Virus record (IMG/VR): IMGVR_UViG_2547132279_000012
Location: 1 to 41,632 of that record
Reading direction: 5' to 3' (one strand)
Length of the DNA: 41,632 nucleotides
DNA from: a virus
Taxonomy: Duplodnaviria; Heunggongvirae; Uroviricota; Caudoviricetes
Within the stretch, counting starts at the first letter, position 1, and the number at the start of each line of letters is the position of its first letter. This document shows positions 37,660-41,632 of this stretch, piece by piece. A program made the translations under genes and the position numbers. The notes beneath the pieces were generated by a model. It ran no database searches, had not been told where the DNA came from, and was given only the letters and a program-made list of their open reading frames with translations.

Positions 37660-38433
37660 TCAAAAATTAGGTGAGTAACGGACCGGGGACATAGCTCCTT
37701 TTTTTCTTAATTCATCTGGTATTTTTTTTCCAAGATAAAGATTTGCTATTTCAGGTGGGGCTTCTCGACCTTCAAAACCATAGCGAGAACTTTGTGTTGC
37801 CTCAAAGTCCGGATCCTCGTCCCAGTATTTCATCGTAGGGAAATTTTCACGTGTTGATTTGAGCCATTTATCAGCAATGAAAACCCCTCGAACGATCCCC
37901 CTTACAGTAGCAAGAATGACTTCTGCTTGGCTGGCGCGAGAGACATTAATGCGCCAGCTAAATCGAACCGCATCATAAAGCTCTGAATCCTTTGCACTTC
38001 TGTTAACGGAAATCATTAATGCTTTATGATGAAATGTTATGGTTTCGGGTTGATATGTTGCTATCAACTCTTTGACATGCGCGGCGCCGAATTCATTGCT
38101 GCCAGCACCATTCATGATATTCGTTAACCCAGGGTAGGCATCAATAAGTGCTGCTTCAACTTCGTACGCCGTCTTTTCATCAGTCATTCCGTGTCGATGG
38201 ATGACATGGATAACCTCAAGTCCTGCTAACCTTATTTCTCTAATTTGCTTTAGCTTGTTGCTCAGTAACTCGTCATCATCAGTCGCTGCCACTTCACCGC
38301 GCATATGGGCAAATACGCGGTTACCTTTGCCTTTCCCTACATAGAAGGTGCTTCCGTCCCTCGGATCAATCAATCGGTATACATACCAGCCAAGGTGTTC
38401 AATTACTCCAGAAGGAAACTCAGTAATATCCAT
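37660..38433 (-). CDS. GIY-YIG nuclease-domain protein (N-terminal GIY-YIG, uncharacterised C-terminal domain)
   Basis: [29 protein letters not shown] plus downstream Glu (EVEAALID) fits the GIY-YIG pattern (compare UvrC GVYRM...YVGKAK.LR.R); AT-rich. Confidence 0.7.
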
Positions 38434-38610
38434 TTTGCAATATCTATGAATTATTTGTGAGACGTATATTAATGAACATTGCAAGGGCTCACAACCAGTA
38501 GTGTTGAGAAAACCATCGGGGAAATGAGGCTAAGCCTTTGAATTTACATAGTATAAAAAAGATACTTTTCCTCATAATGTGAATTAATTTTATGTTTCGT
38601 TTGATGATTG

Positions 38611-38660
38611 GACCGGTCTCGAAACCCGTAGCCACGTCGTATGCAAGAACGTGCTACGAC
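38611..38660. repeat. Right copy of the direct repeat bracketing the GIY-YIG gene
   Basis: See the left copy; lies in the promoter-side intergenic region of the minus-strand gene. Confidence 0.5.
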
Positions 38661-38906
38661 TGGCTGGTGAACTTCCGATAGTGCGAGTATTGAATGATTT
38701 CCAACTGTTATCGATTTTGCGTATTTTTTGCATGAGAGGATTTTTACCTCCTCCCACCGATCCTCCATGGCTTTACGCCAGTGTCTCTGGTCTGCTATGT
38801 ACCAGAAGCGGAAGTTGTGTCTGTTAGTATGATATTATAATTACACTCGCTTATAATAAGCCCACAATACAGATATAAAAATATCTCAACGCTTGGGAGT
38901 TAACAA

Positions 38907-39818
38907 ATGATTAACTTTACTGAAATTGATAGTGACGGTGAAGCCTGGGAGTCATTTGCCCGTGATTTTCTTGAAGAACTTGGCTTTTATATTGAATCCG
39001 CGCCAGATAGAGGTGCAGATGGAGGTAAAGATCTTTTAATCACAGAGCAATTGCAAGGTCAGTTAAATAAATATAAATTTCGTTGGCTTGTTAGCTGTAA
39101 ACATTATGCAACAAGTAAAAAATCAGTTTCAGAAAAGGATGAGATTAATATACAAGAACGTATTGATGGATTCAATGCCGACGGATTTATTGGATTTTAC
39201 TCAACACTGCCAAGTAGTGGTTTAAATTCAAGAATGACGCAATTAAAAGAGAATGGAAAAATAAAGGACTTTCGATTCTTTGATGGTAAATTAATTGAAA
39301 ATCACTTAGTCAGAATTGGTTACTCAAAACTACTCCTTAGATACTTTCCTGAGAGCTATAAAAAAATAAAACCCAAGCATTTGATTTTTGATAAGTACTT
39401 ACCTATAAAATGTGATCGTTGTGGAAAGGACTTAATAGAAAACCATCATGAAGAAAATTATGATGGCATTGTGTGCAATGCAGAGATCATACACGATGAC
39501 AAACCAAATGAGGTGATAGCGGTTTATTATGCGTGTAAAGGTGATTGTGATAAGCATTTTGAGGATTATTTTTGGAATGAATATAAAGCGATTACGAGAT
39601 GGCAGGATATAAGTGATCTAGCCATCCCATTATTCTATCTCAAATGGATTATGGGGACATTTAATGAACTTGAGTATGGAAGGAAAACATATACCAAAGA
39701 AGCCTTCAATAAAACAAAGGAGATAACATTAGCGCTATCTCAAATTGTTATGAGAGAAATGACAGAAAAAGAAAGAGAAAGAGTGATGGCTTTGAATTCA
39801 CTACCTGATTACATATAA
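38907..39818 (+). CDS. Mrr-cat-like PD-(D/E)xK nuclease-domain protein with C-terminal Cys-cluster domain
   Basis: FEEFARDFLEELGF...DRGADGGKDLLI...RWLVSCKHY matches the restriction-endonuclease (Mrr_cat) signature; CDRCGK...C...CKGDCDKH Cys cluster; very AT-rich. Confidence 0.65.
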   Translation: MINFTEIDSDGEAWESFARDFLEELGFYIESAPDRGADGGKDLLITEQLQGQLNKYKFRWLVSCKHYATSKKSVSEKDEINIQERIDGFNADGFIGFYSTLPSSGLNSRMTQLKENGKIKDFRFFDGKLIENHLVRIGYSKLLLRYFPESYKKIKPKHLIFDKYLPIKCDRCGKDLIENHHEENYDGIVCNAEIIHDDKPNEVIAVYYACKGDCDKHFEDYFWNEYKAITRWQDISDLAIPLFYLKWIMGTFNELEYGRKTYTKEAFNKTKEITLALSQIVMREMTEKERERVMALNSLPDYI

Positions 39819-40024
39819 ATTATATTTACTAACATTTGAACTAGCGCATCTTTGGTGCAGAGACACCACCATCTTGGGGACACTGTGAGGCCACTGGCTT
39901 CCCAACTTATCGTTATACAGGATAATAAGGTGCTCCAGGGTGGCTATGAACTTGATGTTACGTCTGCGATTTGCTCATAAGGGACAACCATACTCAAATC
40001 TCCCACATTGCAGGAGATTTGAGT

Positions 40025-40627
40025 ATGAACACGTCACCGTGGAACAAAGACCGTATCATCGGCCAAAAAAGACCACTTCAGATATCTCATATCTGGGGGA
40101 TCCGAATCCGGCTTGAACTGGAAGGTAAAACGCGCGATTTAGCTCAGTTCGATATGGTCCTGGACAGTAAGCTACGAGGCTGTGATCTGGTCAAACTCAA
40201 AGTATCTGATGTTGCATATGGTAGCTCTGCTTCAAGCAGAGCTACGGTGCTGCAACAGAAAACCGGTAGCCCTGTGCAGTTTGAGATAACCAAAGGGACA
40301 AGAGAAGCTGTTGCTGCATTGATAATGCTTGGCAATTTGCATAGTAAAGACTTCTTGTTTCGGTTTCTGGTCGGAACTAATCAGCTCATATCTACCCGGC
40401 AATACAACCGAATTTTTCATGGGTGGGTAGAAAAGCTTGGTCTCGAAGATTCGCTTTACAGCACTCATTCCATGAGAAGAACAAAACCTTACCTGATCTA
40501 CAAGAAAACCAAGAATCTTCGGGTGATCCAACTTCTGTTGGGCCATAAGAAACTGGAAAGCACAGTCCGTTATCTGGGTATTGAAGTAGATGATGTGTTA
40601 GAGATCTCTGAATCGATTGAAGTCTAA
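40025..40627 (+). CDS. Short tyrosine recombinase (catalytic domain only, about 200 aa)
   Basis: LRGCDL (Arg box), HSMRRT (H-x-x-R), LLGHKKLESTVRYL (His, Tyr); start taken at the ATG preceded by AGGAG inside a 13 bp inverted-repeat hairpin. Confidence 0.65.
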   Translation: MNTSPWNKDRIIGQKRPLQISHIWGIRIRLELEGKTRDLAQFDMVLDSKLRGCDLVKLKVSDVAYGSSASSRATVLQQKTGSPVQFEITKGTREAVAALIMLGNLHSKDFLFRFLVGTNQLISTRQYNRIFHGWVEKLGLEDSLYSTHSMRRTKPYLIYKKTKNLRVIQLLLGHKKLESTVRYLGIEVDDVLEISESIEV

Positions 40628-40750
40628 GGTTGTCAGGGCTGCAACAACAGCCCTGTGCCAGGAGTTGACACTGTTAGCATCGCGCTATGTTAATCTATGT
40701 TGAGCAGTTAAAAATGATAATGTAGTTTATATGGATAATCAGTTTATAGA

Positions 40751-41632
40751 GTGGGTGAGATGGAACTAGATGAAACACTTGAAGTTATCAAAAATAATTT
40801 TAGTAATAATCAGAAGAAACTATTTAAAAGGATTGAGCCAGCCACTAACCGTCAAGTAGCTATCGGTCTTATTAGTTTACAAGGAGTGGAAAAAACATCT
40901 CAGGCTGAGATAGAGGTAATTGCCGGCCTCATATCTCAGTTTAGTCCATTGGAAATCGATAGTTTTCAAAATTCACCACGACGAATAACTCTGAAAGGTC
41001 AATTCCCAAACGGACATATTGTTTATATCGAGCCTCAGTATAAGGTTGGCAATATAAACCCAAAAGCCCAGCCTTGGGCAATAGACCTTGTCCTTAGACT
41101 AAATAGATGGATTGGTCAAGATTTGGTTGAGATTGCTGCTATTGGCATCGAGTATGATGGCCACATAGCTCATTATGTGGAAAGTAAAATTAAGTCTACT
41201 TACAAGCGTGATGCAGTAATAACTAGTAACGAAGGATTTCAATCGATTAGGATCTCACCAGAACAATGGAAATCGTCTAAAGAGGATCTTAAGAAGGCAA
41301 TTAAAAAGTATTTTGAACATCACATAAAAAAAATTGAAAAAGTTCAACTAAGCACAATAAACGCCCAAAATTTCAACAATTTTATTTATGAAAATGAAAA
41401 TGAAGTGATATCCACTGTAACTTGCCCTTTATGTAATGGAAAAGGCAGTTTAGCGGGAGAAGATTGTCCGATCTGTAATGGAATGGGATCCGTAAAAAGA
41501 TATATTGCTGCAAAGGTGAATCTTTCTAATTATGAAAAATTCACTTGTCCTGACTGCAGGAATATAAAATTAGATTGCAGAACCTGCAATGGTGAAGGAT
41601 CAATTAGCAGAGAAAAAGCATTAGAAATGTAA
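40751..41632 (+). CDS. DUF559/Vsr-like endonuclease-fold domain fused to a DnaJ-type CxxCxGxG zinc finger
   Basis: AIDLVL...IGIEYDGHIAHYVESKIKSTYKRDAVITSNEGFQSIRISPEQW fits the DUF559 pattern (vD...iEvDG..H...D..RD..L..G..vlRf...e); C-terminal CPLCNGKGS, CPICNGMGS, CPDC, CRTCNGEGS; AT-rich. Confidence 0.55.
   Translation: MGEMELDETLEVIKNNFSNNQKKLFKRIEPATNRQVAIGLISLQGVEKTSQAEIEVIAGLISQFSPLEIDSFQNSPRRITLKGQFPNGHIVYIEPQYKVGNINPKAQPWAIDLVLRLNRWIGQDLVEIAAIGIEYDGHIAHYVESKIKSTYKRDAVITSNEGFQSIRISPEQWKSSKEDLKKAIKKYFEHHIKKIEKVQLSTINAQNFNNFIYENENEVISTVTCPLCNGKGSLAGEDCPICNGMGSVKRYIAAKVNLSNYEKFTCPDCRNIKLDCRTCNGEGSISREKALEM

Follow-up and report, generated by a model that had tools for sequence, protein, structure and literature searches.

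Site-bounded nuclease cassettes and a small candidate exchange recombinase at the attR end of a thrW prophage of Escherichia coli

The stretch of DNA analysed here, all 41,632 nucleotides of the IMG/VR virus record IMGVR_UViG_2547132279_000012 (hereafter the window), is an SfV/SfIV-like Escherichia coli prophage in thrW. Its head genes (HK97 type) and tail genes (Mu type) are followed, towards the right, by an invertible tail-fibre segment and a Pin invertase, and past these we found four intact genes at positions 37660-41632, as the original prediction from the sequence of the window had described. They encode a GIY-YIG endonuclease, an Mrr-like PD-(D/E)xK restriction endonuclease (REase), a short tyrosine recombinase recognized by the Pfam Phage_integrase model, and a nuclease with a zinc finger (Table 1). 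Their supposed AT-richness was evident from a GC (guanine plus cytosine) content of 35-42%, compared to 50-59% in virion genes. The three distinct nuclease folds that had been announced were indeed three nuclease domains, but these belong to two superfamilies, namely GIY-YIG and PD-(D/E)xK, the latter being represented by an Mrr-type and a Vsr/DUF559-type domain. The island formed by these genes consists of two variable slots that are independent of each other, slot A adjoining the Pin invertase and slot B from position 38790 onwards. We consider it probable that this cargo end is composed of slot A and of a slot B in which site-bounded nuclease cassettes are exchanged by the recombinase of 200 amino acids (aa) via two types of short sites, here termed L and R.

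A search with a 25-mer, allowing up to three mismatches, detected the thrW 3' end nowhere in the window except at attL, as had been noted before, and ruled out an attR inside the window, which would have placed the island outside of the prophage. The attR that had been expected further to the right was located 306 bp past the window end in E. coli APEC 102026, which is 100% identical to the window across positions 37600-41632. Because this thrW repeat lies beyond the island, the island is inside the prophage. There are two thrW repeats only, the second one to the right of the island, and the island is separated from attR by a conserved attP arm of about 270 bp that thrW prophages with other cargo and the isolated phage phi458 have in common. 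We regard the location and the cargo nature of the island as settled, as it lies between the last structural or invertase gene and attR and combines variable content with conserved flanks. Among 5426 complete E. coli genomes, to which all genome counts given here refer, positions 37600-41632 were near-unchanged in only seven; most genomes with similarity to the region matched only the part from 37600 to ~38810. The thrW locus of APEC 102026 is occupied in tandem (L001, 16339-25300), with attR being followed by an N-terminal fragment of a P4-type integrase, MarR, the autotransporter toxin gene vat disrupted by an insertion sequence (IS), a second integrase fragment and yagU. The region past attR represents the VAT pathogenicity island, which the prophage has displaced.

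Slot B has the order phage-L1 / REase / R1-recombinase-L2 / zinc-finger nuclease / R2-attP arm-attR, and its anatomy was directly visible in a comparison with other thrW prophages. This comparison bore out the predicted variability of the att-proximal cargo, with four different contents enclosed by one common left flank and the attP arm. Besides the cargo of the window, these were LysR and an alcohol dehydrogenase in NCTC9041, an open reading frame (ORF) of 89 aa in ET201, and an MBL-type nuclease, the recombinase, a hypothetical gene and a PD-T7-3-like DUF4145 protein in E06. Homology of the window with NCTC9041, ET201 and phage P2-EC67 breaks at the L1 site.

The L and R sites share a dyad-symmetric core of about 24 bp with arms GTCCGCT/AGCGGAC and an 8-nt centre, which is CTGTGCCA in L and CTCGCTCA in R. 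They are inverted relative to each other, and four of the eight central positions differ between L and the reverse complement of R. A position weight matrix (PWM) of 20 nt, trained on 18 sites, gave 122 matches in 484 kb around recombinases at 30 loci of Enterobacterales and viruses, compared to 0.02 matches expected per shuffled 41.6-kb window. Sites outside of the training set were found at the borders of neighbouring cassettes in CFT073, SCEC020026, SCU-105 and E06, and such cassettes thus form arrays. With respect to orientation, 60 of the 122 sites were L on the plus and 56 R on the minus strand, while L minus and R plus occurred three times each. The distance from R to L was either 51-54 nt, including an 18-nt linker (12 cases), or 694-697 nt, including the recombinase gene, and the cassettes themselves measured 0.6-5.4 kb. 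Junctions composed of R, the 18-nt linker and L fold as two hairpins. At a few loci L and R sites lay in the opposite orientation (L015, 14930-15856; L018, 5679-9666), which inverted arrays or rare inversions could explain.

Sites of this kind are also borders of the P2 Z/fun hotspot, of thrW prophages with differing cargo, of CFT073 and other arrays, and of an array in Pseudomonas aeruginosa. The latter (L092, 3390-9530) encodes GGDEF, BrnT-like and HEPN_RiboL-PSP proteins together with a homologue of the zinc-finger nuclease of the window, which is likewise flanked by such sites; here GGCCAGAAGCGGAC-type sites alternate in orientation, and there is no recombinase gene within 6 kb. Phage 21 and many lambda-like phages contain, at ~26.7-27.2 kb and just left of att/int, the R site and about 210 bp of the attP arm with 87% conservation (L001, 16065-16273). 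Because of this conservation, slots bounded by L and R may exist in lambdoid phages too.

The recombinase gene lies between R1 and L2. Only about 35 residues precede the catalytic domain of its product, in which R51, K79, H148, R151, H174 and Y183, the complete R-K-H-R-H-Y set, were invariant in 26 sequences. The family comprised at least 7997 clusters at 90% identity, all of about 200 aa. A truncated integrase pseudogene could be ruled out from this constant length and the invariant catalytic residues across thousands of clusters. The recombinase was encoded in 959 E. coli genomes, in many contexts and on both chromosomes and plasmids. Among GTDB species representatives, at least 548 carried it, with a range from Enterobacterales to Pseudomonas, Burkholderiales and Alteromonadales, and 66 IMG/VR contigs did so as well, often at a contig end. 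Existing names were generic only, the best NCBIfam models being XerA and XerC far under their cut-offs, and nothing close was detected among solved structures (XerD, E 0.009).

An alignment of five unrelated contexts (the window, E06, the aspV island of CFT073, a Qin-like prophage and the ypjA region) showed that the gene is part of a module of about 690 bp with sharp conserved ends, which starts with the R site GTCCGCnnnnTCGCTCATAAGGGAC and ends, past a hairpin, with the L site CTGTGCCAGAAGCGGAC. The flanking inverted repeats are kept as far as Pseudomonas, where they read GTCCGCTTCTGGCCGGTTAGCGAC...GTCGCTAACCGGCCAGAAGCGGAC. At the start of the gene lies a further stem-loop (Table 1). Analogous hairpins of divergent sequence were found in most of 55 diverse loci, and in folds calculated for each sequence the Shine-Dalgarno sequence was paired in 85% of cases compared to 62% of shuffles. 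As this stem-loop recurs across lineages with different sequences, it suggests a tight, fold-back translational control of the recombinase like that of IS10-type transposases. Rather than being part of the cargo, the recombinase probably drives the cargo slot.

The reuse of L and R sites across replicons and species could be observed directly. Across positions 38790-39977, the REase cassette and ORF1 in the Z region of P2-EC67 are 90.5% identical, with the homology beginning in the L site and ending in the R site, and ORF1 had been placed between annotated left and right inverted repeats. The same cassette was found in the Z/fun hotspot of BE2-5, after the P2 tail-fibre assembly gene, and the R-side border of this hotspot is common to all P2-like phages. 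Natural hybrid junctions were likewise seen directly when CFT073 was compared with the otherwise collinear CFE299. Two segments differed between them, one consisting of a HEC-08 cassette, R and the recombinase and the other of a 1-kb cassette. One junction in CFE299 is an exact L×L hybrid, ...GTCCGCTCTGTGCCAG/ATGCGGACGTTGC..., in which the left half comes from one L site and the right half from the following one, and the other is an exact R×R hybrid built likewise, ...GGTCCGCTCCTCGCTC/TCAGCGGACCTTC.... Because both are exact hybrids and their crossovers lie inside 9-13 nt of identity, a shared core too short for RecA, these junctions point to site-specific recombination between like, directly oriented sites.

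Strains H227 and H228 had kept the upstream cassette and the recombinase while the downstream cassette was changed at the L site. No empty site, in which the flanks of L and R would be joined, was found in the E. coli genomes or in P2-like phages, the smallest content being a cassette of 730 bp; the lack of empty sites therefore fits replacement or exchange rather than simple insertion. Inverted cassette variants were found neither among about 200 CFT073-type loci nor between homologous cassettes, which is a limited test as it relies on assembled genomes.

Based on these observations, we propose that the recombinase would pair like sites, L with L and R with R. A circle made of a cassette, R, the recombinase gene and L could enter a prophage hotspot through any of its L sites, and the exchange would be completed by a subsequent R×R deletion, in a manner resembling recombinase-mediated cassette exchange with heterospecific sites. 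Excision of the circle would be expected to leave the deletion junction GTCTGCTATGTACCAG/GAGTTGACACTG. Both nuclease cassettes would be self-expressed, one on either side of the recombinase. That this enzyme is the catalyst of L×L and R×R recombination is suggested by its adjacency to the sites, its co-conservation with them and the natural junctions.

Several points weigh against cassette exchange by this recombinase. The tie between enzyme and sites is one of adjacency and co-conservation. Units of L, cassette and R without a nearby recombinase occur in P2 phages, NCTC9041, ET201 and P. aeruginosa, where the enzyme would have to act in trans or would have to have acted anciently. All seven genomes carrying the island show the same arrangement, and the island may be frozen, since its four sites deviate from the consensus (R1 with a PWM score of 15, L2 with the inner arm GTTGAC, L1 with TGTACCA). 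An AlphaFold model of the recombinase, based on 26 close homologues, was unusable with a predicted local distance difference test (pLDDT) value of 43. Neither nuclease cassette matched a validated defence hidden Markov model (HMM) in PADLOC. Lastly, a 2004 article by Nilsson and colleagues on the P2 Z region reportedly invokes site-specific recombination in its title and may already describe part of the system.

The many site-flanked cassettes without a nearby recombinase, the lack of a close homologue among the isolated phages of INPHARED, where all matches were below 60% identity, and the folding of the sites as hairpins would all suit an explanation in which the cargo is passive, with L and R being mere boundary or terminator-like sequences, swaps arising through homologous, phage Red-type or illegitimate recombination, and the recombinase being a passenger such as the leftover of a mini integrative element. 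We consider this unlikely because the crossovers fell within identities far under the need of RecA and because the recombinase gene is always located exactly between R and L, in place of the 18-nt linker. Gene and flanking sites are also co-conserved from E. coli to Pseudomonas, and the two site types keep distinct centres, which would be unexpected for mere terminators.

It is less probable still that the enzyme is a FimB/FimE-like invertase flipping cassettes between inverted L and R sites and thereby switching defence genes on and off, although its size and its catalytic-domain-only architecture resemble FimB and FimE, L and R are inverted repeats around whole genes, the flanking repeats in Pseudomonas are near-perfect inverses, and upstream cassettes occur in either gene orientation. 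Differences at four of eight central positions, as between L and R in Enterobacterales, normally block strand exchange, and the REase cassette carries its own promoter inside the segment. Moreover, a given cassette is oriented alike with respect to L and R whether it occurs in P2-EC67 or in the window, and likewise in E. coli and P. aeruginosa, the limited test on CFT073-type loci gave no inverted variants, and the polymorphisms observed were deletions or insertions between direct repeats. An invertase role is therefore less likely than cassette exchange. Very improbable is the view that the AT-rich genes were left behind by an older, separate island at thrW and lie outside of the prophage. 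The multiple occupation of thrW (P4-type integrase fragment, MarR and vat past attR) and a recombinase of the region's own would speak for it, but the second of only two thrW repeats lies to the right of the island, both cargo flanks are phage sequence common to other thrW prophages and phi458, and all genes are intact.

Table 1. Features of the prophage ends and of the two cargo slots; positions beyond 41,632 are window-equivalent
Feature	Position	Strand	Evidence or remark
tRNA-Thr(CGT)	1369-1444		
attL, 48-bp repeat	1399-1446		
Integrase, 387 aa	1459-2622	-	
Pin-type serine DNA invertase	37045-37599	+	pinE annotation in identical APEC 102026 locus; last phage gene before cargo
Left copy of ~40-nt imperfect direct repeat flanking PD-T4-3	37600-37640		Repeat search; perfect 17-mer CACGTCGTATGCAAGAA at 37608-37624
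PD-T4-3 / CMoRE, GIY-YIG type IV restriction endonuclease	37660-38433	-	Pfam LEM-3_GIY-YIG; PADLOC; PDB
Right copy of direct repeat (38621-38662) and ~100-bp non-coding block	38621-38729		
L1 site GTCTGCTATGTACCAGAAGCGGAAGTTG	38790-38817	+	PWM score 25.7; left border of slot B
Promoter-like site of REase cassette, ATGATA-17-TATAAT	38829-38857	+	Best promoter-like match in region
Cassette 1, solitary Mrr-like PD-(D/E)xK REase with Cys-rich C-terminal part	38907-39818	+	Pfam Mrr_cat
R1 site TTACGTCTGCGATTTGCTCATAAGGGAC	39958-39985	-	PWM score 15, degenerate copy; right border of cassette 1, left end of recombinase module
Perfect 15-bp stem with 9-nt loop, pairing Shine-Dalgarno sequence and ATG of recombinase gene	39989-40027	+	RNA fold, -21.3 kcal/mol
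Tyrosine recombinase, 200 aa, catalytic domain and ~35-aa N-terminal extension	40025-40627	+	PF00589, E 2.6e-14
Hairpin CAGGGCTG-CAACAA-CAGCCCTG, then L2 site TGTGCCAGGAGTTGACACTG	40634-40673	+	Right end of recombinase module, left border of cassette 2
Cassette 2, Vsr/DUF559-like nuclease domain and four CxxC motifs (DnaJ-type zinc finger)	40760-41632	+	
R2 site	41662-41689		APEC 102026 locus L001, 16063-16090; beyond window
attP arm, ~270 bp	~41690-41937		Between R2 site and attR
attR, 48-bp repeat	41938-41985		From APEC 102026

The REase of cassette 1 scored 24.9 bits with Mrr_cat, above the Pfam cut-off of 21, and no adjacent methyltransferase was found among the neighbouring ORFs. There was no family match for this protein in PADLOC, NCBIfam or PHROG and no relative in PDB. 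Its promoter-like site corresponds to the -35/-10 elements annotated in P2-EC67 (AJ512685), and the cassette was present in 12 genomes. Cassette 2, found in seven genomes, encodes a Vsr-type nuclease in whose family a D...ExDG..H motif and eight cysteines are invariant. Its Pfam scores remained below the gathering thresholds (MTES_1575, 21.4 vs 38.2; DnaJ_CXXCXGXG, 28.3 vs 32.7), and in PADLOC only the C-terminus was matched, by PDC-M01B. The family is small, with 31 clusters from Vibrio, Photobacterium, Pseudomonas and others. Cassettes neighbouring the recombinase elsewhere encode PD-T7-1, HEC-08, a PD-T7-3-like gene and an MBL nuclease. We infer that the cassettes defend against phage.

Slot A holds the GIY-YIG gene, which PADLOC, run as a defence predictor on the island, names PD-T4-3 (E 2.4e-140, residues 1-256 of 257). 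Its product is nearly identical to crystallized proteins (PDB 9U75, E 3.7e-172; 9U7U, E 1.1e-150), and the gene is an ordinary, already known member of PD-T4-3/CMoRE, present in 837 genomes. PD-T4-3 reportedly goes back to work of Vassallo and colleagues from 2022. CMoRE homologues act as type IV endonucleases on the 5-hydroxymethylcytosine (5hmC) and glucosyl-5hmC DNA of T-even phages (PMC12923530), and PD-T4-3/CMoRE is active in its native host (bioRxiv 2024.12.20.629700). Judging from these homologues, the PD-T4-3 of the window is predicted to be a known-type restriction enzyme against hydroxymethylcytosine phages.

The non-coding block of ~100 bp that accompanies the right direct repeat of slot A is about 90% conserved in HK97, HK106, 2H10 and Stx phages; a capsid protein fragment annotated within it by PGAP (38645-38725) is probably spurious. 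A search of both repeat copies against Rfam gave only two CssrB matches, one in each copy and far below threshold. In strain ET201 a DUF262 (GmrSD-like) gene takes the place of PD-T4-3, and pin is truncated. As a different gene occupies the same slot and the slot is flanked by repeats, the slot adjoining the serine invertase looks like a second, independent exchange point. Small serine recombinases have been described as markers of defence genes (2026 paper).

Probable further cargo was noticed in other parts of the prophage. An AT-rich unit of two genes at 13181-14738 on the minus strand (GC 32-37%) matches A and B of the PADLOC candidate system PDC-M53, and a Trypsin_2 protein encoded at 16430-17341 on the plus strand matches PDC-S45. 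No L or R sites were found flanking either of them. The copy of the prophage in APEC 102026 carries an IS1203 in the tape-measure gene (L001, 487-3632), whereas the corresponding ORF of the window (27841-29748) is intact; the window therefore stems from a different strain among the seven carriers.

Among known systems, the P2 Z/fun region is like the window in its L and R borders, its REase cassette and its anti-phage gene content, but it lies between tail genes, whereas slot B adjoins the attR of an SfV-like prophage and contains two cassettes plus a recombinase gene. The gene for this recombinase was not found in any sequenced P2-like phage. The P2 defence hotspot has been placed between genes G and FI (Rousset et al. 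2022, PMC9122126). With respect to position, the window resembles SfV and SfIV with their gtr genes and e14 with its pin-mcrA cargo, all located after tail-fibre or invertase genes and before attR. SfV and SfIV have the same thrW att core, and SfIV also shares the final ~170 bp of the attP arm up to the att core, but no more of it; this presumably fits the gtr cargo that we take from the SfV/SfIV literature to occupy the att-proximal position, as the original prediction had stated for phages of the SfV type. Their cargo serves O-antigen modification, whereas that of the window consists of restriction-type nucleases in site-bounded cassettes.

Integrons offer a parallel in that a tyrosine recombinase lies beside an array of single-gene cassettes rich in defence genes. 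Window-type junctions of R, 18-nt linker and L are imperfect palindromes of about 74 nt, which is an analogy to attC and not a homology. IntI has about 320 aa and a specific insertion, whereas the recombinase of the window has 200 aa and did not match an IntI model in NCBIfam. It is furthermore embedded in the array, where it takes the position of a linker, and is combined with two heterospecific inverted site types, and no attI or Pc platform was identified at the array. Integron cassettes are promoterless and co-oriented, in contrast to the REase cassette with its own promoter and to cassettes on either strand in arrays of the window type. In Acinetobacter, pdif modules, which depend on XerC/D, likewise contain genes bounded by inverted recombination sites, in arrays moving between replicons. 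They have one shared site per junction, whereas here there are two sites and the recombinase is encoded in the array, and the GTCCGCT...AGCGGAC cores look unlike dif when compared by eye. FimB and FimE, too, have about 200 aa and are essentially a catalytic domain alone, and the recombinase of the window, if active, would likewise act on short inverted sites. No family-level HMM relationship between the two was found, however, and at the loci studied here indels were seen instead of inversions.

Att-proximal prophage cargo, P2 hotspots and PD-T4-3 are already known, and inverted repeats around inserts in the P2 Z region were annotated in 2002-2004. Full-text literature searches turned up neither this recombinase nor its sites. 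We regard the cassette system as a novel form of the integron-like or dif-module-like type, with a different recombinase and two heterospecific sites. More tentatively, and with slightly less than even confidence, we suggest that the recombinase and its heterospecific hairpin sites L and R might constitute a cassette-exchange system widespread in Proteobacteria, an integron-like second route for the spread of single-gene anti-phage cassettes. A 2026 study on P2/P4 hotspots left the mechanism of exchange open and found neither transposition nor homologous or illegitimate recombination satisfactory as an explanation. With a small recombinase of its own and sites of about 24 bp, this exchange would have a concrete and testable mechanism. 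Units bounded by L and R would also be a signature for mining defence genes, including both uncharacterized nuclease cassettes, and a natural two-site cassette-exchange system of this kind would be of possible use in genome engineering. Independent of the mechanism, the prophage stacks a validated type IV restriction enzyme and two candidate nucleases at its attR end. If the proposed system holds true, cassettes would be inserted, deleted and swapped among prophage hotspots such as P2 Z/fun and the att-proximal slots of SfV-like and lambdoid phages, genomic islands and plasmids, and the filling of hotspots would be explained without transposases or long homology.

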